Below, piece by piece: positions 1 through 63,708 of a stretch of 64,000 nt of DNA (its first letter is position 1; each line of letters starts with the position of its first letter). Source of the stretch: Candidatus Magasanikiibacteriota bacterium. GTDB lineage: Bacteria; Patescibacteriota; Patescibacteriia; Magasanikbacterales; UBA922. Location of the stretch: NCBI GenBank assembly GCA_018650645.1, contig JABIFP010000020.1, positions 8,385-72,384 of the forward strand. The letters are read 5' to 3'. A program made the position numbers and the translations under genes. The notes below the pieces were generated by a model, which did no database searches, was not told where the DNA came from, and saw only the letters and a list, made by a program, of their open reading frames with translations.

Positions 1-919
1 ATTTTTCATTCAAGTTACACGCTCGTTCAAGAAGACGTGAATGCAAGTAGAATACATCTCCAGGATACGCTTCTCGACCCGGTGGTCGTCTTAAAAGCAG
101 CGACATCTCTCGATACGCCCAAGCTTGCTTTGTAAGATCATCGTAAATTACTAAAACATCTTTTCCCTTGTCTGCAAAATATTCTGCAATTGTTACACCA
201 GCATATGGTGCAAGGTAACTCATTGGTGCAGGTTCTGATGCACCAGCAGAAACTACTGTAGTGTATTCCATTGCTCCTGCTTCTTGCAGTTTAGCAACAA
301 TTCTGGCAACCTTTGATTCTTTCTGCCCAATAGCTACGTATACACAGATCATGTCTTGTCCTTTTTGATTCAAAATTGCATCGATTGCAACCGCGGTCTT
401 TCCTGTCTGACGGTCACCAATAATAAGCTCACGCTGCCCACGTCCAATTGGAATAAGTGCATCAATGGCCTTAATACCAGTTTGCATTGGTCGGTTTACC
501 GGTTCACGTGTCATTACACCAGGAGCAACGCGTTCAATTGGATATGTCTCTTTTGTTTTAATTTCTCCTTTTCCATCGATTGATTTACCAAGCGCATTCA
601 CTACGCGTCCAACCATGCCTTCTCCAACAGGGATAGACATAATTTTTCCGGTTCGCTTTACCGTATCTCCTTCTTTAATCTGTCTTGATTCTCCTAAAAT
701 AATAGCACCAACTGTTTCTTCTTCAAGATTCAGGGCAAGTCCCATTGTTCCGTCTTCAAATTCAAGCATTTCTTGCGCCTGACATGCTTCTAGTCCAATC
801 ATGCGCGCAATTCCGTCACCAACTTCAATAACAGTTCCAACTTCTGTGACGTCAGCTCCTTTTTTAAATCCGTCGATATTTTTTTTCAGTGATGCAATCA
901 CTTGATCTGTATAACTCAT
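1..919 (-). CDS. atpA: ATP synthase F1 alpha subunit, N-terminal part; gene continues past the window start
   Basis: Minus-strand translation from the ATG at 917-919 reads [20 protein letters not shown]... with a P-loop GDRQTGKT and the alpha-subunit hallmark motifs. It is the last gene of an atp operon. Confidence 0.9.
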
Positions 920-950
920 ATGCAGTGTGTTGTTTTATGAAGATTTGAAT

Positions 951-1334
951 TTATAGTGTGTGTTTCATTCGACTAAGTTGCGCTTTTACACTCGCGTCCA
1001 GAATTTTATTTCCGGCCTGTGCAACCACTCCCCCGATAATTGCACTGTCCTCAGCAACTGTTGTCTCTACTTTATCACCAAATATTTTTTCAATTTGTGA
1101 CACGAGCTGCTTAGGTGCTTTTCTCGCCGTCGTGATTTTGAGATCCACAATCCCTTGCTGCTTCTTACTATATCTGTCGAATGCTTCTATAATGTATGGC
1201 ATTTTTGAGATAAGCTGTTTCTCTTGAAGCAAATGCATAAACTCTTTCGTTGCCGCATCAAGCTCCTTTCCGCTTTTCCCTTCGGTCACCTCGTAGAGGA
1301 TTTTTCCTAGTTGTTCTGGAATTAATGCTGGCAT
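951..1334 (-). CDS. atpH: ATP synthase delta (OSCP) subunit, short form (127 aa)
   Basis: Sits between atpF and atpA in the canonical operon order and has OSCP-like helical composition. It is shorter than typical delta subunits. Confidence 0.7.
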   Translation of the reverse strand: MPALIPEQLGKILYEVTEGKSGKELDAATKEFMHLLQEKQLISKMPYIIEAFDRYSKKQQGIVDLKITTARKAPKQLVSQIEKIFGDKVETTVAEDSAIIGGVVAQAGNKILDASVKAQLSRMKHTL

Positions 1335-1336
1335 AA

Positions 1337-1846
1337 TTATGCTTTAAGTGATCCAAGAATTTCTTGAATGTATGTTTCATCTTTTTTTCCATCCATTCTT
1401 TCTCCAAGAACTTTTTCTACTGCTAATACAACCAATTCAACTGTTTCCTTTCGGAGCGTATCTTTCATGTCTTGCTTATCAATATCGATATTCTTTTTTG
1501 CCTGTGCAATAAGTGATTCGATTTCTGTCTTCGCTTTATTTTTCATGTCTTCAGCCACCTGCTTAGAATCGTCATGTGACTGCTCTACTACTTTATTTGC
1601 AGCTACTTTTGCTTCGTCAATGATTCCTTGCGCTTTCTGCTCTGCCATTTGCAATTCAGATTGAGATTTTTTGTAGTTATCCATTCCTTCTTTCATTTTC
1701 TCTTGGCGCTCATTAATCACTTTCATGATTGGCCCAAAGGCATACCTTTTCAGTACCCAATAAATGATAAGGAAGTTAATAAGGTTAAATAACCCCATTC
1801 TCCAGTCAAACCCGATTTTTCCTAATGTTTCTAAAATAAATTCCAT
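1337..1846 (-). CDS. atpF: ATP synthase F0 subunit b
   Basis: N-terminal transmembrane helix followed by a long charged helix (KAQGIIDEAK...), in operon context. Confidence 0.85.
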   Translation of the reverse strand: MEFILETLGKIGFDWRMGLFNLINFLIIYWVLKRYAFGPIMKVINERQEKMKEGMDNYKKSQSELQMAEQKAQGIIDEAKVAANKVVEQSHDDSKQVAEDMKNKAKTEIESLIAQAKKNIDIDKQDMKDTLRKETVELVVLAVEKVLGERMDGKKDETYIQEILGSLKA

Positions 1847-1925
1847 ATATTTTTCTTTTCTTCTGATAAGAGAGGGTCTGTAGAGCGTTGCTCCACAGAG
1901 CTCCCCCTACAAGAGGGCATGCTTA

Positions 1926-2147
1926 CTATACAATGAAGAAAGCAACCAATGCGTAGATCGCAGTAGATTCTGCAAGTGCTACACCAATGAACATCTTTGT
2001 GAAGAGGTTTCCTTCGAGCTTTGGATTTCTTCCAATAGCTTCGATAGTCTTACCAATGAGGTATCCTTCACCAATACCTGAACCACCCATTGTTACGGTA
2101 CAAAGACCTTTCGCAATAAGTCGTGCTGAGTCTACATCTAATTCCAT
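1926..2147 (-). CDS. atpE: ATP synthase F0 subunit c (73 aa)
   Basis: Two-helix proteolipid with a GxGxGxG motif and a conserved acidic residue in helix 2 (ALAESTAIY). Confidence 0.9.
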   Translation of the reverse strand: MELDVDSARLIAKGLCTVTMGGSGIGEGYLIGKTIEAIGRNPKLEGNLFTKMFIGVALAESTAIYALVAFFIV

Positions 2148-2176
2148 ACGCGTATGGTTATCAATAACTAAGTAAA

Positions 2177-2968
2177 TTATTCTTCAACTTCTTCTGGCTT
2201 CGTCACAGCTAGCGAGTAATACGCAGCAGTTAGCGCCCCAAACACCATCGCTTGTAACACGGCAACAAATAAGTTGAAACCGAGCCACACTGATGGAACT
2301 ACGAGCGCGAACGCACCAAGTAATACTCCTGCCATGATTTCTCCGGCATACATATTTCCAAACAAACGAAGTGAGAGTGAAAACACTTTCGCTAATTCGG
2401 CAATGATGTCGAATAAACCAAGAATAAAGTCAATCAGGCCAAGGAAGCCTTTACCGATTCCTTGACGGAAACCAGTAAAGACACCCTTTATCTTAAAGAA
2501 TTTTCCAAGATGCCCAAAGAAGCCCACCGTTTGCATACTTGCATACTGCGTCAGCAAGATAATACCTAAGGCGACACTAAAGGTCATATTGAAATCATTT
2601 GTTGGGGTTCGGAACATAGTCACTCCATCGTAGGTAAACGATGTTACTCCCGGAAAGAGTGCCATGACGTTTGAGAAACCAAAAAAAACAAAAATGGTAC
2701 CAATAAGTGGCAACATTTTCTTTCCTGTTTCTTTTGAGTTTAAAATTTGTGATGTCAATCCGTAAAATCCTTCGATTGCAACTTCTACAGCAGTCTGAAA
2801 CTTGCTTGGGACGAGCTTTGCTTTTTTACGTACAACCACGGCAAGCACTGTCAAAATTATAGTAGCAATAATTCCCAGTAACATTGCGTTGCTGATTGGC
2901 ATACCAAAAATCTCAAAAAGTGTTTCTGGTTTTACTGGAGCTGGATCAGATGAGTATTGAAACCACAT
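2177..2968 (-). CDS. atpB: ATP synthase F0 subunit a
   Basis: Multi-pass membrane protein with the LSLRLFGNMYAGE motif characteristic of subunit a. Confidence 0.9.
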   Translation of the reverse strand: MWFQYSSDPAPVKPETLFEIFGMPISNAMLLGIIATIILTVLAVVVRKKAKLVPSKFQTAVEVAIEGFYGLTSQILNSKETGKKMLPLIGTIFVFFGFSNVMALFPGVTSFTYDGVTMFRTPTNDFNMTFSVALGIILLTQYASMQTVGFFGHLGKFFKIKGVFTGFRQGIGKGFLGLIDFILGLFDIIAELAKVFSLSLRLFGNMYAGEIMAGVLLGAFALVVPSVWLGFNLFVAVLQAMVFGALTAAYYSLAVTKPEEVEE

Positions 2969-3924: not shown

Positions 3925-5406
3925 TTACGCTAGCTTTTCCCACTCTTCTGCCCCCGCCACAAACTCACTCTTAATTTGCTCAAAGTATGCACTTGCACTT
4001 TCATAATCATTTTGCACTTTTCCATCTAAAATTGCTTCTTCAATAGCTTTTTTAATTTTTCCAATTGTTGGACCTGGCTTTAACCCACACTCTTCAATAA
4101 TTTCTTCTCCGCGTACAGGCGATTGGAATGCTCGGAGTTCATCTTTTTCTCTAATTTCTGCAATACGTTTTTCTAACTCATCATAATTTTTGAGTCGTTT
4201 TACTTTTTTCTTTTGATTCCCCGTTGTAATATCTGCGCGGCACAGTGTCAGTAAGTCATCCAAAGAATCACCTTGGTTTACAAACAGACGGCGAACAGCA
4301 CTATCTGTTACGCCATTATCCATTAATGCGATTGGCTGCAAATGCCATCGCACCAATTCACTTACAAAATGCGTATCATTTTTACTAAACCGAAGTTTAC
4401 GCATAATGTCTTTACACATTTTACGCCCTAAATGTTCATGCATATCAAACGTCCAACCTCTTCCCTCTGCAAACTTTTTTGTTGGTGGTTTTGCAATATC
4501 ATGCATAAGCCCCGCAAAACAAAGAAGTGCGTTTCCTCCCTGCTGTGCTATACCATCTACTACCGCAAAGGTGTGTGACAGATTATCTTTATGAGTGTAT
4601 CCAGCAACTTCTTCTACACCTGCTAGCTCTGTCACTTCTGGCAAACACTGATCCATGAGTTTTGCACCATGCATAAGCCATAGCCCAATTGACGGTACTT
4701 TTGCACCCATAAGCTTCATAAGTTCCTCCTGCACACGTTCTGCAGACACAATAGAAAGCCGTTCACGATTTTTATGCATTGAAAGCAGTACTGATTCTTC
4801 AATTGAAAAATCGAGCTGCGCTGCAAAGCGAGCCGCGCGAAGCATGCGCAGTGGATCGTCAAAAAATGTCTCATCCGGATCAAGCGGTGTAATAAGTTTT
4901 TTGTTTATAATTGCTTCCTTACCATTATACGGATCAACCACGTCACCTAGTGACCCATCTGGATGTACTTTCTGCGCCATTGCATTACACGTAAAATCTC
5001 TTCGTGAAAGATCTTGCTCGATTGTCGCAGGTTCTACTACAGGCTTCCGTGATTCACTTCTATACGATTCACTTCGGGCGCCTGCAAATTCCACTTCAAA
5101 AAGTACCTTTGTTTTTTCTCCTTCTGCCTCTTCTATATATACGTATCTTGCTGTATCGAAGTCTTCAAACTCGATGAGTCTTCCCTGCTCTTCTCCTTCA
5201 TACGCCAAATATGCCCTTGCAAATTCAAGTCCACTGCCGGCTACCACTACATCAATATCTTTCTTTTGATTTCTGCCCATAATGGCATCTCGAACAAATC
5301 CACCAACAACATACGCCTCAGTTTGCTGAGCGCTACTAATTTTTCCGATTGTGCTTAAAATATGTGCGTCATTCATAGTGCTGCGACTGTACACTAAAAT
5401 AGCCAA
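3925..5406 (-). CDS. cca: tRNA nucleotidyltransferase (CCA-adding) / poly(A) polymerase family protein with HD domain
   Basis: GGFVRD...DIDV nucleotidyltransferase head, an RRDFTCNAMA motif and a C-terminal HD (HDIAKP) domain. The true start may be the internal Met at about 5376, because the annotated 5' end overlaps uppP. Confidence 0.8.
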   Translation of the reverse strand: MAILVYSRSTMNDAHILSTIGKISSAQQTEAYVVGGFVRDAIMGRNQKKDIDVVVAGSGLEFARAYLAYEGEEQGRLIEFEDFDTARYVYIEEAEGEKTKVLFEVEFAGARSESYRSESRKPVVEPATIEQDLSRRDFTCNAMAQKVHPDGSLGDVVDPYNGKEAIINKKLITPLDPDETFFDDPLRMLRAARFAAQLDFSIEESVLLSMHKNRERLSIVSAERVQEELMKLMGAKVPSIGLWLMHGAKLMDQCLPEVTELAGVEEVAGYTHKDNLSHTFAVVDGIAQQGGNALLCFAGLMHDIAKPPTKKFAEGRGWTFDMHEHLGRKMCKDIMRKLRFSKNDTHFVSELVRWHLQPIALMDNGVTDSAVRRLFVNQGDSLDDLLTLCRADITTGNQKKKVKRLKNYDELEKRIAEIREKDELRAFQSPVRGEEIIEECGLKPGPTIGKIKKAIEEAILDGKVQNDYESASAYFEQIKSEFVAGAEEWEKLA

Positions 5407-8451: not shown

Positions 8452-9039
8452 CTATTGTTTTGAAATGTGAATTTGCAGTAATGTTTGATCTAGTTCTTTT
8501 ATCACATCTGCATTTTCTGCTTGTACAAGATCCTCTCCATCCGTAATCAATCCTGCATCCATATTGCGTCCATTTGCAGTTCTATCCTTATCGTCTGGAA
8601 GCGCAAGATTATTGATCATAATATATGTATCATCTTCCCCAAGGAGTTTTGTGACACCACTCATACCGTACAGAGTGTGATCTGTGTCTTCTTCTGGAAG
8701 TGTGATGATAAATTCTTCAGTATCTCCACTCTTTAGTTTACCCTTTACTACAATTACCTGCGCAACTCCTGGAAGTGCTTCTAAATACGCCTTATACTCT
8801 TCTACATTTCCATCCTCTGCGAGTGATCCGAATTCAGTAGGTGCAATTTTATTCTTATAATTCAAGTTCGCCTCTGCTTTATGAAGCATGTATACTGAAT
8901 CAGATAGTGCTGCATCGGCAGAAACGTTTGATACCGTAACTCTAAACTGATGCTCCCCTAGCGCTTCTGGTGTAGATCCACATCCAGTTAGAGCAAGTAA
9001 AGCCGTTCCAATAAGAAGTCCTTTTGTATATGTATTCAT
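8452..9039 (-). CDS. lipoprotein (lipobox LLALTGC), function unknown
   Basis: A signal peptide is followed by a Cys lipobox when translation starts at the internal Met, so the listed ORF start is likely too long. The mature part is acidic and soluble. Confidence 0.5.
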   Translation of the reverse strand: MNTYTKGLLIGTALLALTGCGSTPEALGEHQFRVTVSNVSADAALSDSVYMLHKAEANLNYKNKIAPTEFGSLAEDGNVEEYKAYLEALPGVAQVIVVKGKLKSGDTEEFIITLPEEDTDHTLYGMSGVTKLLGEDDTYIMINNLALPDDKDRTANGRNMDAGLITDGEDLVQAENADVIKELDQTLLQIHISKQ

Positions 9040-58615: not shown

Positions 58616-58711
58616 GTATCTATAATAGCATAAAATGAATATTTATTTCTTACCCTTGACATGAGCACTTTTTTTTGGTACATTCTTTTGTCCGCACTAG
58701 AGCGGGCAAGG

Positions 58712-58866
58712 AGAATGCTGATGGGTATCCGATACCCGATGTGTAAGTTCTGTTTTAGCACCACCGGCAAGCATGCGGACGATTGTCCCTTGAAGCAACG
58801 GAAGCCGTCGATCTCTCTGATCCTGACGGTTGGTGCCATTAGTCTTGTCGTGATCAAGCTCGCATA
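58712..58866 (+). CDS. candidate 50-aa zinc-ribbon plus single-TM mini-protein in a GC-rich islet
   Basis: AAGGAG Shine-Dalgarno sequence, ATG, CxxC...HxxxC N-terminus, then a C-terminal TM helix, followed by a strong terminator. Confidence 0.25.
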
Positions 58867-58932
58867 GCGCTAGCTGACACGCACCTTGCACAACTCCGTA
58901 GCCGACTGCGAACACCGCGGTCGGCATTGATT

Positions 58933-58966
58933 AAAAGCACACCAGTTTCCTGGTGTGCTTTTATTT
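58933..58966. terminator. intrinsic terminator hairpin (AGCACACCAG tttc CTGGTGTGCT) with flanking A/T runs
   Basis: Perfect 10-bp stem. Part of the duplicated block next to tRNA-Thr. Confidence 0.6.
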
Positions 58967-58984
58967 GAGCCATCATCGGGAATT

Positions 58985-59131
58985 TCACGTCGGCTTTTCA
59001 GCCTCTCCAATGGGGCTTCCGCCCCCTATGGCGCTCAACTCTTCGGTTTCACTGTTACCCCCACAGCAAAAGTGGGAAACTATCGTTTCCCAAACCCTTC
59101 CCGCTTCAATCTCTTGCAGTAGAGCAAAATC
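58985..59131 (-). pseudogene. degenerate tRNA-Thr-like duplicate (pseudo-tRNA) sharing the terminal 19 nt of tRNA-Thr(GGT)
   Basis: The reverse complement retains GGCTG, CCCGATGATGGCTCA and GCGCCATA acceptor-like pieces, but the D and T stems are disrupted. It is flanked by the 54-bp duplicated block (58931-58984 and 59132-59184). Confidence 0.35.
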
Positions 59132-59167
59132 ATAAAAGCACACTTCTCGTGTGCCTTTATGATTTTG

Positions 59168-59240
59168 AGCCATCATCGGGAATTGAACCCGAGACCTCAG
59201 CCTTACCATGGCTGCGCTCTACCAACTGAGCTATGATGGC
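59168..59240 (-). tRNA. tRNA-Thr (anticodon GGT)
   Basis: Reverse complement GCCATCA-TA-GCTCAGTTGGTAGAGC-G-CAGCC-ATGGTAA-GGCTG-AGGTC-TCGGGTTCAATTCCCGA-TGATGGC-T forms a canonical cloverleaf. Confidence 0.85.
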
Positions 59241-59284
59241 TTGATGTGCCAGCAGTATACACGGCACAAGCTCACTCGTCAATG

Positions 59285-60358
59285 CTACCCCTTCTGCATT
59301 TTCACAACCTGCGTTGGGTATGCAAACTCGATTCCTTTTTTCTTTAACGCCTCATGCAGCTCCATATGAATGTGCTGCCTAATATCCATGTACACGCCAT
59401 AATCTGCCTTTTCTACATGATACACCACCTCAAAGTTTAAGCTTGATTCTCCGTACTCAAAGAAGTGAGCACGGCCAAAAGTTGCCCCTTTTGTTTTATC
59501 AATAATCACCTTTATCATTTCTGGTACTGCAGCAATTTTTGCTTTTGATGTTTCGTATATGATTCCAAAAGTAAATACATCACGTCGACGTTTCATTTTT
59601 TTGTAATTCTGCACAGTAGAAGACGTCAGTTCTCTATTTGGAATAATCAATTCTGATCCCTTTAGTGTTTGCAATCGACTCGTTTTCAGTCCAATATGCT
59701 GTACGGTTCCAGAATTTTCTCCCACAATAATAAAGTCACCAACTTGAAACGGTTTATCAATCAAGAGTGAAAACGAACTAAACAAATCGCCCAAAATATT
59801 TTGAAGCGCAAGCGCAATAGCAATACCACCTATCCCTAAGCTTGCAATAAGTGAGGTAACATTAAAGCCACTGTTTGAAAGAATCAGCAGAATTGCCATA
59901 CCCCAAAGAGCTGCAGAAATAACAACGCGAACAAATCGCAGCATGGTCCCAATTTGTGCAGCCTGCTCCTTATTTTTTTCTTGCTTCTGATGCAGGTACT
60001 GTTCTAGCGCTGCAACGAAAAAAGCATTAATGGCACGTATAATTCCATATGCAATACCTATATACGCAAACCCTTCTAACGTTCGCTCTATCCAGTGCAC
60101 AAGGGCAAGCGGTCTCATTGCTACAAGTATTGCCACACCCAAATAAAACAGTGAACTAAGCTGCCCTATCGCAGTAATAGCCATATCGTCTATATGCGTT
60201 TTTGTATGCGATGCCATTTTATGAATTCTTCCAATGACCACTTTCTTTACAATATGCACCAATAGTAGAACAATACAGAACAATCCGATTGCCTTAGCAT
60301 ATGTAAGAACATCATTACCCCAATACGTATCTGATATGAAAAATGGAGCCTGCCACAT
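59285..60358 (-). CDS. MscS-family mechanosensitive channel
   Basis: Three N-terminal TM helices and the conserved MscS beta-domain (GDFIIVGENSGTVQHIGLKTSRLQT). Confidence 0.8.
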   Translation of the reverse strand: MWQAPFFISDTYWGNDVLTYAKAIGLFCIVLLLVHIVKKVVIGRIHKMASHTKTHIDDMAITAIGQLSSLFYLGVAILVAMRPLALVHWIERTLEGFAYIGIAYGIIRAINAFFVAALEQYLHQKQEKNKEQAAQIGTMLRFVRVVISAALWGMAILLILSNSGFNVTSLIASLGIGGIAIALALQNILGDLFSSFSLLIDKPFQVGDFIIVGENSGTVQHIGLKTSRLQTLKGSELIIPNRELTSSTVQNYKKMKRRRDVFTFGIIYETSKAKIAAVPEMIKVIIDKTKGATFGRAHFFEYGESSLNFEVVYHVEKADYGVYMDIRQHIHMELHEALKKKGIEFAYPTQVVKMQKG

Positions 60359-60479
60359 AATGGATATTTGTTATGATTATGCGAAAATTATACCACAAGC
60401 AAGCAAGGTTTGATATCATTTGCGCCTGTACATATTGCTGTTATACTCAAGAGAGACAACTATTCATTATATACAGGCT

Positions 60480-60935
60480 ATGCAACTCACCGGAAAAAAG
60501 GCACCTGCACTTACATTGCAAGATCAAGATGGCGTTTCTATCTCATTAGCCGATTATTTAGGCAAAAAAGTACTTCTCTATTTTTACCCAAAAGATGACA
60601 CTCCAGGCTGCACAAAAGAAGCCTGTAATTTTAGAGATCGATTAAATGAATTACAACAGCACGGTGTACAAGTACTTGGCGTCAGTAAAGATTCAGTCAC
60701 ATCGCATAAAGCTTTTGCAGACAAATTTCAGTTAAATTTCCCGCTTCTTTCTGACGAATCAACTGATACGATTCAAGCGTATGGTGTATGGAAGGAAAAA
60801 TCGATGTTTGGAAAAACGTATATGGGTATTTCACGCGATTCTTTTTTGATTGATGAAACTGGTGTCGTGCAAAAACACTATCATAAAGTAAAACCTGCAA
60901 AGCATGTAGATGAGGTTATAAAAGACCTTACCTAA
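60480..60935 (+). CDS. bcp: peroxiredoxin Bcp (thiol peroxidase)
   Basis: FYPKDDTPGCTKEAC peroxidatic Cys motif. The start is set at ATG 60480; the ORF track begins at an upstream TTG. Confidence 0.85.
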   Translation: MQLTGKKAPALTLQDQDGVSISLADYLGKKVLLYFYPKDDTPGCTKEACNFRDRLNELQQHGVQVLGVSKDSVTSHKAFADKFQLNFPLLSDESTDTIQAYGVWKEKSMFGKTYMGISRDSFLIDETGVVQKHYHKVKPAKHVDEVIKDLT

Positions 60936-61008
60936 ATAAAAGAAGACACAACCGAAATGTGTCTTCTTTTATTTCCTCCTTTTTACGTTAATTTGCTCGG
61001 ACAGATCA

Positions 61009-61347
61009 CTAGTGCAGCATCCTCTGAACTGTCCTGATAATCTGCCAGCCCTGCGGCTCATTGAAGAGCGCACCTTGCGGATACTCCTCCGCCATGTACA
61101 TCTGGTATAGCGCGCGCTCCAGCGCACTGCGCGAGTCTTCATCACTAACCCACGAAACGACCTGCTCCCTGTTCAAAAAGCTATCGTCGATGATGGCGTG
61201 GCAACCGATCAACCTATCCATCCAAGTTGGAAGCCCTCGCCGCTGACAAGGCACAAACGGCCGTGTCCAGAGCTCGATACGAAACAACTCCCCATTATCG
61301 AGGTCGCCTTCATGCGGTACATACGCGAGTACGAATGCTGCCGCCAT
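61009..61347 (-). CDS. hypothetical protein in a GC-rich islet
   Basis: GGGAGGG Shine-Dalgarno sequence and ATG, preceded by TTGACG, a 17-bp spacer and TAATAT. No known motif. Confidence 0.4.
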   Translation of the reverse strand: MAAAFVLAYVPHEGDLDNGELFRIELWTRPFVPCQRRGLPTWMDRLIGCHAIIDDSFLNREQVVSWVSDEDSRSALERALYQMYMAEEYPQGALFNEPQGWQIIRTVQRMLH

Positions 61348-61404
61348 GTTCCCTCCCTTCATTTCTACATTAGGTATATTACCTTTTTTTTCTTGTTCGT
61401 CAAG

Positions 61405-63231
61405 CTACTTTGAGTCTATATACGTATTTTTAAGAGCATGCGGCCCAACAACATACAGCTCATTCATAGCACGAGTAAGCGCTACATAGAGCATATCCTT
61501 TACCGTCCGCTTTTTTTCCTCCCGCATTTCTTCCGAATACTCGCTCCCAAAGTTTGATAGTAGTTCATGCGTCACGCCAACCAAACATACCGCCTCAAAC
61601 TCCACACCCTGCGCCTCATGAATACTCATAATATGCACATGCTCGCCAGCATTTAGCAGGAGTTTATATATGTTCGCAATGTCCTCTGTAAGGGCTAATA
61701 CGCCGATTCTTCCGGTAGATTCATCAATAATTTGCTGCACCTTGCTGACCTGTGCAGCTACTTCCTCTAAAACAAATTCCTGTACAGGCACCCCTTCTCT
61801 CATCTGCTCTGGAATTGAAACCGTATACCCAGCGTCCTCAATATAGCGCATTATTGCTTTTGTATTTCGGTATACTTTTTGCAGTGCTACCACTCTATCT
61901 TCTTTCACGTCCTCTCTTGCCTCACTCCACTCCCGAATAGTTCCAATTTGTGTTTGCTGCGCCATATCACCGACATACATCACCGCATTATGTTCTGGAT
62001 CAAGCACCGATTTTGCCAAAGCGATCTGCTCTGGTAGGTAATTTTGAAACTCGTCAAAAATGAGCAACGAATATTTCATGGCGAATCGTCCCATCTTTTT
62101 TACTGCAGATCCATCTTTTTGTGTTTTATAATATTCTTGCATGATGGTTAACGCGCCTTCATGCTTTTTTTGTAATATAAGCAATACCGTAATATCAAAT
62201 CGATCTAATTGGTGGAGCTGCTCCTGATCTGTAAGTGCATCAAGTACCTCCTGACCAGCTGTTGCATACACTTGCCGCAGTGCTTCATATGGTTTTTTGT
62301 GCCACGCGAAATTGCGAATCTGCTTGAGTGCCTCTCGTTTTGCAAATTCAATGTTATCTTTTTGCACCTGCGATTTCCCTACTCTATATACAAGTTTGGA
62401 ATCAAGTTCCAGCACTCGCATTGCCCACTGTGCAAACGTCGTAATTTTCACTCCTTTAATCCCAAGTTCAGGAAGTAAATGCGAAAAGTACTCGCGGGTC
62501 CCCTCGTCTTGTACAAACACCAAAATTGACGTTGGTGGGAACTTATCAGACACATCCGGTGATTGGGTCAAATACGCTACTCTATGCAACGCTAGGGTCG
62601 TTTTTCCTGATCCAGCAGGACCCGAAATAACCAGAGGCCCCCTATGATTCGCCCTAATCACCTCGTCTTGTGCTTTTTCCATTTGCGCCACAATTTCTGG
62701 CAAGATGAAGCCTTTCTTCTGATTTGAAAAATATTCTTGATAAATAAGTTGCCTTCCCTCCTGCTCCGATTCCGAAGATAAGAAACGAATAGTAGCCTCC
62801 GTAATCATGTACTGATCCTTCTTCTGCAAATTTCCTGTACGCCTGTCCCCATTCGGTCGCTCATATGAAACTGATCCAGGCTTTTCAAATCGAATTGCTG
62901 ATGCCGGGGTAATCCAAGAATAGATATTATGATCTACAGATGAAAACTTTCCAAAATACATATTGTCATGTTCACCACTTCCAAAATCTACCTGGCAATG
63001 CATAAAATATGGTGACTCTATCATCACCTCTAATTCATTCTGCCGTGCCTTTCCATGTTCAAGTAATTTATGCTGAACAATTTTATTGTCTTCATTGAGT
63101 TTTGGAAGGTCTTCTGCCATCTGTATATTTTGTACAGATAGTTTGGTAAATCGATCAGTGATCGAATCTACCTTTTCTTGCAGGTGCTTTGCGGCCGCTG
63201 CAAACAGTGTGTCTTTTTGTGCTTGATTCAT
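61405..63231 (-). CDS. UvrD/Rep-family (HelD-like) superfamily-1 DNA helicase
   Basis: Walker A GPAGSGKTT, DEFQN motif II and a C-terminal VKGLEFEAVCLVG-type UvrD C-domain motif. Confidence 0.7.
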   Translation of the reverse strand: MNQAQKDTLFAAAAKHLQEKVDSITDRFTKLSVQNIQMAEDLPKLNEDNKIVQHKLLEHGKARQNELEVMIESPYFMHCQVDFGSGEHDNMYFGKFSSVDHNIYSWITPASAIRFEKPGSVSYERPNGDRRTGNLQKKDQYMITEATIRFLSSESEQEGRQLIYQEYFSNQKKGFILPEIVAQMEKAQDEVIRANHRGPLVISGPAGSGKTTLALHRVAYLTQSPDVSDKFPPTSILVFVQDEGTREYFSHLLPELGIKGVKITTFAQWAMRVLELDSKLVYRVGKSQVQKDNIEFAKREALKQIRNFAWHKKPYEALRQVYATAGQEVLDALTDQEQLHQLDRFDITVLLILQKKHEGALTIMQEYYKTQKDGSAVKKMGRFAMKYSLLIFDEFQNYLPEQIALAKSVLDPEHNAVMYVGDMAQQTQIGTIREWSEAREDVKEDRVVALQKVYRNTKAIMRYIEDAGYTVSIPEQMREGVPVQEFVLEEVAAQVSKVQQIIDESTGRIGVLALTEDIANIYKLLLNAGEHVHIMSIHEAQGVEFEAVCLVGVTHELLSNFGSEYSEEMREEKKRTVKDMLYVALTRAMNELYVVGPHALKNTYIDSK

Positions 63232-63245
63232 ACAAACGAGTTAAT

Positions 63246-63305
63246 AAAAAAAACTCCTGAATCATTGGTATGTGTAATAGATACACTCCACCTGTGATTC
63301 AGGAG
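63246..63305 (-). terminator. long-loop hairpin (CTCCTGAATCA ... TGATTCAGGAG) followed on the minus strand by T7, probably terminating the tRNA cluster
   Basis: An 11-bp perfect stem with a 30-nt loop, and a T-run on the minus strand toward helD. Confidence 0.4.
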
Positions 63306-63353
63306 TCTTGCATGACGCGCGCTGTGGAGAAAGCTAATTGTGGGCCGGGGAGG

Positions 63354-63517
63354 CGCTTCGCTATTCGAACGCGCGCTTGCAGCGCTTTGGGAAACTTTCC
63401 AGTTTCCCAACCTTCCACCGCATGTAAGGGGCGCTGCCCCTTACCATCCCGGGTTCGAATCTGATTCAATGGCTGCTATTCTATTCAACAACTGATGCAA
63501 ATTCATCTTTTTCTATT
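63354..63517 (-). pseudogene. degenerate tRNA-Tyr-like duplicate sharing the terminal 16 nt of tRNA-Tyr
   Basis: TTGTGGGCCGGGGAGG at 63338-63353 repeats 63518-63533. The internal ATTCGAAC T-loop remnant is retained, but the stems have decayed. It contains GGGAAAC...GTTTCCC and GTAAGGGGC...GCCCCTTAC hairpins. Confidence 0.35.
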
Positions 63518-63520
63518 TTG

Positions 63521-63602
63521 TGGGCCGGGGAGGATTCGAACCTCCGAAGGCTGAGCCAGTGGATTTACAGTCCACCCCATTTGACCGCTCTGGAACCGAC
63601 CC
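63521..63602 (-). tRNA. tRNA-Tyr (anticodon GTA), long variable arm
   Basis: Reverse complement GGGTCGG-TT-CCAGAGCGGTCAAATGG-G-GTGGA-CTGTAAA-TCCAC-TGGCTCAGCCTTCGG-AGG-TTCGAAT-CCTCC-CCGGCCC-A is very similar in architecture to E. coli tRNA-Tyr. Confidence 0.85.
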
Positions 63603-63632: not shown

Positions 63633-63708
63633 TGGAGCCATCTGCGAGATTCGAACTCGCGACCGACGGTTTACAAAACCGTTGCTCTACCAGCTGAGCT
63701 AAGATGGC
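63633..63708 (-). tRNA. tRNA-Thr (anticodon TGT), CCA encoded
   Basis: Reverse complement GCCATCT-TA-GCTCAGCTGGTAGAGC-A-ACGGT-TTTGTAA-ACCGT-CGGTC-GCGAGTTCGAATCTCGC-AGATGGC-T-CCA. Confidence 0.85.

Follow-up and report, generated by a model that had tools for sequence, protein, structure and literature searches.

Why should two different tRNA genes each be followed by a related piece of GC-rich sequence? The question is raised by a stretch of 64,000 nucleotides (nt) from a Candidatus Magasanikiibacteriota bacterium (contig JABIFP010000020.1, positions 8,385 to 72,384; hereafter, the window), in which segments downstream of tRNA-Thr(GGU) and tRNA-Tyr(GUA) share a short hairpin motif. The answer proposed here, to which we assign a probability of roughly 0.6, is that both segments are members of one family of mobile elements, small, non-coding and non-autonomous, whose insertion involves the copying of target sequence. 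This reading is carried by the following observations: (i) the copies share one architecture, in which a core lies between an inverted and a direct copy of the 3' end of the host gene; (ii) these arms are specific to the neighbouring gene; (iii) some genomes carry several copies; (iv) near-identical cores occur with differing arms; and (v) a syntenic relative lacks the elements. The family of Patescibacteria insertion elements that emerges is apparently previously undescribed: neither segment has an Rfam match, to tRNA or to any other family, even at E <= 10, nor do the phage relatives, and a literature search by sequence string and keyword returned no published account.

Two segments behind tRNA genes

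An earlier note, made from the letters of the window, had placed the motif at 59074-59104 and 63389-63421, where it is indeed present. On the tRNA strand, it has the form GGAAGG-N2-5-GGGAAAC-loop-GUUUCCC, with GGAAGG(G)UU-GGGAAAC-loop-GUUUCCC in the window. Could two palindromes simply resemble each other by chance? The similarity does not stop at the palindrome: it takes in the tail AA(A)CC(C)TTCC(.)CGC, and it is this tail (GACCCCTTCC on the plus strand, GGAAGGGGUC on the tRNA strand) that is the most conserved part in other genomes; a chance similarity of the palindromic core is thus not borne out. In the 64 kb, the pattern GGGAAACT-N0-8-GTTTCCCAA matches at 59074-59093, at 63389-63410 and in the palindromic reverse of the second, with no other matches, and it matches in 0 of 100 dinucleotide-preserving shuffles.

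Two further claims of the earlier note survive in part. Each segment does contain a GGGGC/GCCCC hairpin (59012-59025 and 63428-63440), but the two flank the motif on opposite sides; they are therefore two different modules, not homologous positions. The segments had also been described as pseudo-tRNAs. They do repeat the neighbouring tRNA's 3' end exactly, and the second has a T-loop remnant (63363-63370), but ARAGORN calls no tRNA in either, and remains of a whole cloverleaf are absent: only the last 16-21 nt of the tRNA are represented. The GC content of the segments is about 0.5-0.55, against about 0.40 for the genome. Folding, a check that the note had suggested, shows both to be more stable than shuffles on the tRNA strand (z = -2.6 for the Thr segment and -3.8 for the Tyr segment).

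What went unseen in that first inspection is that each core is bracketed by an inverted (X') and a direct (X) copy of the 3' end of its host gene, and that targets other than tRNAs are used. The two elements and their immediate surroundings are as follows; all tRNA genes of the region lie on the minus strand (ARAGORN).

Element 1, behind tRNA-Thr(GGU)
59254-59282: promoter-like site (promoter scan)
59167..59240, minus strand: host gene 1, tRNA-Thr(GGU), intact (ARAGORN; Rfam tRNA, 69.7 bits)
59125..59167, minus strand: spacer, a terminator-like palindrome with 19-bp arms (inverted repeat, terminator scan)
59105..59124, minus strand: proximal arm X', weak (sequence, closing stem of the minimum-free-energy fold, family architecture)
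58985..59104, minus strand: core, Thr-type (covariance-model match, fold z as above)
59074-59104, minus strand: module 1, GGAAGGGUU followed by hairpin GGGAAAC-GAUA-GUUUCCC (the motif of the earlier note)
Within the core after module 1, minus strand: second hairpin, degenerate
59012-59025, minus strand: hairpin GGGGC-GGAA-GCCCC
58992-59003, minus strand: hairpin GGCU-GAAA-AGCC
58964..58984, minus strand: distal arm X, an exact 21-nt direct copy of 59164-59184 (100% identical direct repeat)
58932..58963, minus strand: terminator-like hairpin, 14-bp arms and then a U run (inverted repeat)

Element 2, behind tRNA-Tyr(GUA)
63633-63708, minus strand: tRNA-Thr(UGU), immediately upstream of tRNA-Tyr (ARAGORN)
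63520..63602, minus strand: host gene 2, tRNA-Tyr(GUA), intact (ARAGORN, Rfam)
63463-63519, minus strand: AT-rich spacer between tRNA-Tyr and the proximal arm
63448..63462, minus strand: proximal arm X' (sequence, inverted repeat, closing stem of the fold)
63354..63447, minus strand: core, Tyr-type (covariance-model match, fold z as above)
63425-63443, minus strand: hairpin UAAGGGGC-AGC-GCCCCUUA
63389-63421, minus strand: module 1, GGAAGGUU followed by hairpin GGGAAAC-UGGAAA-GUUUCCC (the motif of the earlier note)
Within the core after module 1, minus strand: GC-rich stem
63363-63370, minus strand: T-loop-like GUUCGAAU
63354-63362, minus strand: conserved end AGCGAAGCG
63338..63353, minus strand: distal arm X, an exact 16-nt direct copy of 63518-63533 (100% identical direct repeat)
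63250..63309, minus strand: terminator-like hairpin with a long U run (inverted repeat)

In element 1, the proximal arm contains AGAUUGAA (59105-59112), the complement of the tRNA-Thr T loop UUCAAU, followed by CGGGAA, which pairs with UUCCCG in the distal copy. The distal copy runs from about T-loop position 58 through the acceptor 3' strand and 3 nt of trailer; like the gene, it has no CCA. The core terminates in ...GCCGACGUGA, and the spacer palindrome resembles the hairpin at 58932-58963. The module order recurs at four loci of other genomes (L071, L108, L115, L081); a Thr-type variant with GGGGUGAC... and a hairpin AGGGC-GGAA-GCCCU is common to the window and these four, two of which (L071 and L108) also lie behind tRNA-Thr(GGU). 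In element 2, the proximal arm has AGAUUCGAACCCGGG, the complement of the tRNA-Tyr T loop (GGUUCGAAUC), and its CCGGG pairs with CCCGG in the distal copy; the latter comprises the T-stem 3' strand, the acceptor 3' strand and 2 nt of trailer. This element is nearly collinear with those at L113 (also tRNA-Tyr), L025 and L119, which likewise terminate in GUUCGAAU-AGCGAAGCG and have an additional hairpin ahead of module 1.

A family with arms copied from its targets

How far does this arrangement extend? An exact-pattern scan of species-representative genomes returned at least 119 loci; those of other genomes (L numbers) were examined as 8-kb pieces. A covariance model, R1, built from 17 Patescibacteria elements of other genomes and none from the window, recovers both window copies on the minus strand (59030-59103, E = 4e-5; 63360-63418, E = 0.02), making two in 64 kb; neither a full scan of the window with this model nor a loose motif search revealed any further convincing copy there. 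Over 52 loci, R1 finds 51 copies in 46 loci, nearly all of them in Patescibacteria and five missed by the exact pattern. Patescibacteria (candidate phyla radiation, CPR, bacteria) are also the largest class among the matches listed. Further copies thus exist in other genomes, as the covariance-model search that the earlier note had called for was meant to establish, and the similarity is not limited to the palindrome; the note's suggestion of a tRNA-associated repeat family instead of independent decay stands. Its tRNA association is upheld by position: of the Patescibacteria copies, almost all lie just 3' of a tRNA gene, with about 43 of the 51 located 20-250 nt downstream and always in one orientation, and each motif match within 250 nt of a tRNA is downstream, with the same strand relation to it. 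The tRNAs concerned belong to at least 15 isoacceptor types (Gln, Met, Arg, Leu, Asp, Ser, Pro, Lys, Thr, Val, Tyr, Trp, Gly, Asn, Ala).

Read along the tRNA strand, the order is tRNA, spacer, X', core and X. The spacer (3-220 nt) is frequently palindromic, a terminator-like hairpin. X' is an inverted copy of 7-21 nt of the 3' part of the tRNA, reaching inward to positions 49-53 (T loop/T stem) and outward to 62-73; X starts at T-loop positions 58-61 and extends at least as far as the 3' end, in some copies taking in trailer and terminator as well, for a total of 14-95 nt. Direct repeats of the tRNA 3' end, 14-24 nt in length, are present in about 26 loci outside the window. The core, of about 50-135 nt, holds no conserved open reading frame (ORF). 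By a junction rule, the 3' side of each core strand continues into tRNA-sense sequence. Tandem or nested arrangements occur (L025, L058, the Arg copy at L056), as do copies with decayed arms (L046, L066, L085, L131).

The arms are specific to the gene that precedes them. The longest exact match of the direct copy has a median of 14 nt to its own tRNA and 6 nt to the tRNAs of other loci (Mann-Whitney p 3e-22); for the inverted copy, the medians are 10 and 6 nt (p 2e-17). Atypical T loops are followed by the arms: UCCGAUU at L075, UUCAAAU at L084 and UUCAAGU at L034. A G-U pair is informative at L091, where the arm GAGGG complements the T-stem 3' strand, CCCUC, and is unlike the 5' strand, GGGGG; it is thus a true complement of the 3' part. 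CCA is missing from copies where the gene has none (tRNA-Thr in the window, L113); the template was therefore the gene or its primary transcript and not the mature tRNA.

Two elements, at L070 (about 1250-1415) and L124 (about 4960-5120), follow tRNA-like 3' ends (...CCCCCGGAGCA and ...GGTGCAAATCCAACCCCCGCGACA, respectively) that ARAGORN does not call. These ends may belong to intron-containing or atypical tRNA or tmRNA genes, such as are reported for tRNA-Asn/Asp in Patescibacteria (PMC13011429).

Inside the arms, the core holds a pair of related GAAAC...GUUUC hairpins, and a GGA-rich box precedes each of them. Module 1, the motif first noticed in the window, consists of the conserved tail and the hairpin GGGAAAC-loop-GUUUCCC; a linker, GUGGAGGAA, leads to hairpin 2, xGAAACC-GNGG-GGUUUCx, and the core closes with the conserved end AGCGAAGCG(AC)GUGA. 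Optional extra hairpins are inserted in some cores. The inner five pairs of hairpin 2 are invariant, and its outer pairs covary (G-C in 9 and A-U in 8 at one position; U-A, A-U, C-G and G-C at the next), a pattern that would be the same for a DNA hairpin.

If the arms track the gene, does the core move between genes? At L034, two cores identical at 79 of 80 positions lie behind tRNA-Leu(GAG) and tRNA-Leu(CAG), with differing arms, each true to its own tRNA; at L056, three copies lie within 8 kb. The syntenic relative L140 shares with the window the order peptidase M16, TIM, TPR protein, tRNA-Thr(UGU), tRNA-Tyr, MscS, tRNA-Thr(GGU), and has plain trailers, with no element, at both sites. Targets are not limited to tRNAs: copies lie behind the 3' ends of rplK (uL11; L030) and rplL (bL12; L076), where the last 21-28 nt or so of the gene are duplicated, stop codon included, and the inverted copy spans the start of the duplication; at L138, a copy lies at a terminator hairpin. 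GAAC adjoins the element at tRNA targets only, and not at L030, L076, L136 or L138.

Proposed insertion and its rivals

How might such an element insert? The inserted DNA would consist of an inverted copy of about 7-21 nt from the 3' part of the host gene followed by the core, and the insert would be flanked by a direct target duplication with a fixed start (the T loop for tRNAs) and a variable end. Because the target is directly duplicated, the host gene remains intact and the core becomes enclosed in a stem of target sequence; at tRNA targets, this stem would amount to an acceptor/T-arm minihelix. Spread may be by copy-and-paste, with the target sequence serving as template in both orientations, either through template switching or through strand transfer and then repair synthesis, possibly with a single-stranded or RNA intermediate; module 1 would be the recognition site of a putative enzyme supplied in trans. 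A long, variable duplication with one fixed end would resemble the outcome of target-primed or staggered-nick insertion, and the inverted copy would require a template switch or strand transfer into the same target strand. The choice of targets, namely the 3' ends of tRNA genes, rplK and rplL, and terminators, suggests that insertion is coupled to the places where heavily transcribed genes end.

Two simpler routes do not hold generally. Campbell integration of a tRNA-specific circle fails at L034, where the twin arms each match their own tRNA, and snap-back copying of the direct arm from the inverted one fails at L030, where the arms overlap by about 5 nt only.

There is a real chance that the insertion mechanism itself is new. 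A fuller version of the proposal is more tentative, and we would not count on it: the elements would represent a new kind of mobile element that writes inverted and direct copies of the target 3' end around itself and so turns the end of any gene with an abundant transcript into a stem, perhaps via an RNA or single-strand intermediate and template switching on the target or its transcript; at tRNAs, it might yield a mimic of the tRNA top half that is recognised by the tRNA enzymes of the cell, and the module shared with Clostridia, phage and Gaiellales would be a widespread enzyme-recognition hairpin.

Several points weigh against mobility. No enzyme, autonomous partner, or excised or circular form was found in the 8-kb loci. 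Nor did any presence/absence polymorphism come to light: 10 of 10 contigs of the window species are identical over both elements, and two exact patterns for empty-site alleles had no match in metagenome contigs. The copies in the window genome appear old because only module 1 is common to both. The direct copies are 100% identical to the tRNA although the adjacent trailers have diverged, which could reflect selection or gene conversion instead of recent insertion, and module 1 is conserved between very distant lineages of Patescibacteria, as would be expected of a functional RNA or a site of protein binding no less than of a transposition signal. At L134 (1392-3320), an element with arms that match tRNA-Met lies 1.8 kb downstream of that gene, beyond genes for an inositol-monophosphatase-like protein (268 aa) and a 2H-phosphoesterase-like protein (217 aa, two HxT motifs); either cargo has been inserted between gene and element, or the element closes a tRNA-led operon. 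Lastly, we know of no transposition or integration mechanism that gives an inverted and a direct target copy together.

The most serious competitor, which we regard as rather unlikely taken by itself but which can coexist with a mobile origin, is a functional structured RNA made together with the tRNA, in which the arms would pair into an acceptor/T-stem minihelix, a mimic of the neighbouring tRNA's top half with the core in place of the T loop. RNase P, RNase Z or the CCA-adding enzyme could process it, and its role could lie in tRNA maturation, in serving as decoy or sponge, or in the binding of a conserved factor through the GGA-rich boxes. As this explanation would have it, every element lies in tRNA sense, with the tRNA on one side and a terminator on the other, but in many loci, including tRNA-Thr in the window, a terminator-like hairpin also separates tRNA from element. 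The folds exceed shuffles in stability, and in 22 of 30 copies the sense strand gives the better fold, with more G-U pairs (100 in sense against 53 in antisense); the strand asymmetry is weak, and it is confounded by the purine-rich composition of the sense strand. Hairpin 2 covaries, module 1 is nearly invariant in distant Patescibacteria lineages, the direct arm stays identical to the tRNA in spite of the divergence of the trailer, and the element is GC-rich within an AT-rich genome; against this, loop sequences are unconserved, copies with decayed arms exist and no Rfam family matches. Nor does function alone explain near-identical cores with re-templated arms, or why the element should be absent from the syntenic relative yet present after protein genes.

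Among more specific RNA identities, tmRNA, a group I intron, RNase P and a riboswitch were abandoned after Rfam, at gathering thresholds and at E <= 10, gave real tRNAs only; a CsrA sponge, suggested by the GGA motifs, was dropped because the hairpin loops are not conserved.

Could the segments instead be attL/attR scars? Here, an island would have integrated into the tRNA T loop, restored the 3' end of the gene and then lost most of its content, in the manner of a cis-mobilizable element (CIME) that may be mobilised in trans by a tyrosine recombinase. Direct repeats that start in the T loop are typical of T-loop-type att sites, and those of the tRNA 3' end here do so; identity reaches into the trailer in some copies, L134 has two genes between tRNA and element, and the tRNA-Tyr element of the window adjoins a helicase gene and a GC-rich ORF that L140 lacks. 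We nevertheless consider this origin improbable. The elements are uniformly small, one conserved core lies behind at least 15 tRNA types and protein genes, an inverted target copy is foreign to att sites, and Campbell integration from a single donor cannot yield the L034 pair, in which both arms track each target. No recombinase, transposase, reverse-transcriptase or Phage_integrase domain is present in the called genes within ~10 kb of the window copies, and an all-against-all ORF comparison around 37 Patescibacteria loci showed no recurrent neighbouring protein; extended to 24 Clostridia/phage loci, the comparison gave housekeeping synteny and ABC transporters only. A small tyrosine recombinase beside a phage copy of the motif (L016) was considered as the linked enzyme and set aside, as it is not general across loci.

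Independent decay of tandem-duplicated tRNA genes, with a motif shared by chance, would account for the partial tRNA sequences but is refuted by the absence of the motif from shuffles, by dozens of members with conserved order and orientation, and by the restriction of the copied part to the 3' 16-21 nt of each tRNA.

Known systems, relatives and neighbours

Does the family of target-copying elements fall within a known kind? MITEs (miniature inverted-repeat transposable elements) and repetitive extragenic palindromic (REP/REPIN) sequences are likewise small, non-coding, multi-copy, hairpin-forming and intergenic, and have no enzyme of their own. Unlike theirs, the inverted repeats here are copied from each target and not borne by the element; the flanks hold a long duplication that varies from 14 to 95 nt, with a fixed T-loop start and a variable outer end, in place of the short target-site duplication of fixed length that marks a MITE; and the orientation to the host gene is strict. 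No matching autonomous insertion sequence (IS) or RAYT (REP-associated tyrosine transposase) was seen in the 8-kb loci examined. Palindrome-associated transposable elements (PATEs), which derive from IS200/IS605 and move as single strands, resemble the family in that two hairpins, related to each other, lie subterminally at about 10-20 nt from either end, that insertion is specific to strand and orientation, and that they have no terminal inverted repeats of their own. IS200/IS605 elements leave the target unduplicated and insert on the 3' side of a fixed motif of 4-5 nt, whereas here there is a long direct and inverted target copy, and the non-tRNA targets have no common adjoining motif.

Integrative elements of tRNA genes, CIMEs and casposons also use the tRNA 3' end (casposons, protein genes too), keep the gene intact by duplicating its 3' end and have repeats of about 14-25 nt; the elements described here have no integrase or Cas1, measure about 100-200 nt, carry an inverted target copy and place one core at many tRNAs. 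Class C group II introns insert in one orientation directly behind the hairpin that ends a transcription unit and take single-stranded hairpins as targets, but the present elements have neither intron structure nor a reverse transcriptase ORF. Group II introns give no target duplication. They are reported to be absent from Patescibacteria, and the group I introns found at position 35/36 of Patescibacteria tRNAs are unrelated to the elements here (PMC13011429).

Folded attachment sites (attP(+) of CTX phage, integron attC) likewise present a stem that mimics a double-stranded target, and if a pinched circle of this sort integrated, gene, spacer, inverted arm, core and direct arm would formally follow one another in that order; they leave unexplained the match of both arms to each new target, no recombinase is linked here, and the core sequence is conserved, which is not the case in attC. 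The inverted arms recall the a1/a2 repeats of retron non-coding RNA, but there is no reverse transcriptase gene nearby (~10 kb in the window; 37 loci), and the target hairpin of a diversity-generating retroelement (DGR) was set aside in view of the shortness and identity of the repeats. Double-hairpin elements and GC clusters of fungal mitochondria are tiny mobile two-hairpin elements that accumulate beside tRNA genes and in the spacers of compact genomes; they have no sequence relation to the elements here, and, to our knowledge, target-derived arms have not been reported for them. As the family departs in a defining feature from MITEs and REPINs, IS200/IS605-derived elements, att-site scars, group II introns and folded attachment sites alike, it is classed simply as non-autonomous insertion elements.

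Why does this matter? Patescibacteria have tiny genomes and are thought to be poor in mobile elements; to settle at the 3' ends of tRNA and ribosomal-protein genes and leave these unharmed would be a distinct survival strategy in compact genomes. The signature of inverted plus direct target copies speaks for an enzyme activity, or a template-switch pathway, that has so far escaped recognition. If the transcript is a mimic of a tRNA minihelix, it would be relevant to tRNA processing in Patescibacteria. On the practical side, partial tRNA copies and GC-rich structured spacers can mislead annotation into false small ORFs and false pseudo-tRNAs, and the elements could serve as strain-typing markers.

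Beyond Patescibacteria, the matches listed include a multi-copy repeat of about 170-280 nt with the motif in Anaerotignum, other Clostridia and their phages, similar hairpins in Gaiellales/Actinomycetota and REP-like palindromes in Chloroflexaceae; an exact-pattern scan of viral contigs found several phage contigs with the same hairpin and the same tail. The Clostridia repeat is a separate intergenic one (L038, L042, L057, L100 and L123 in Anaerotignum MAG093; L013-L016 and L019 in phage contigs) with a hairpin-plus-GAACCCTTCC module, laid out as AAAGCCTTGAAAC..TTTTCCTCG-hairpin-CTGCGGATTCCATTYGGGAAAC..GTTTCCCRANCCCTTCCGC...GACAGTCTGA. It has no Rfam match; its upstream hairpin covaries and, in the phages, it is located between the major capsid gene and the next gene. 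Lineage-specific repeats based on GGGAAACC-loop-GGTTTCCC, followed by (G)ACCCTTCC or ACCTTCC, occur in Gaiellales/Actinomycetota (L023, L048, L052, L101, L118, L133) and in Chloroflexaceae (L037, L060, L061, L068, L079, L086, L126). The module of hairpin plus CCUUCC may have been reused widely as a recognition element. One phage contig (L011) also carries three group I introns within 2.4 kb (430-2736, minus strand; Rfam Intron_gpI, 58, 55 and 30 bits), separate from its motif match at 8652-8680.

Two observations concern the neighbours of the window elements. Between the tRNA-Tyr element and the peroxiredoxin and MscS genes lie a gene for a UvrD-type helicase (608 aa) and a GC-rich ORF of 117 aa without a Pfam match (61009-63231, minus strand). 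These look inserted at the tRNA-Tyr locus because L140 runs straight from tRNA-Tyr to MscS, with helicase and GC-rich ORF absent; together they are possibly a small island or defence module. Beside element 1, a promoter-like TTGACA-17-TACATT with an upstream TG (58656-58684, plus strand) faces a GC-rich (about 0.54) stretch of ~240 nt that reaches the bidirectional hairpin at 58932-58963. The interval 58656-58930 contains just short unannotated ORFs (68 and 76 aa), with no Pfam match on record and no Rfam match, and on its plus strand could be a small gene or RNA that has so far escaped annotation.

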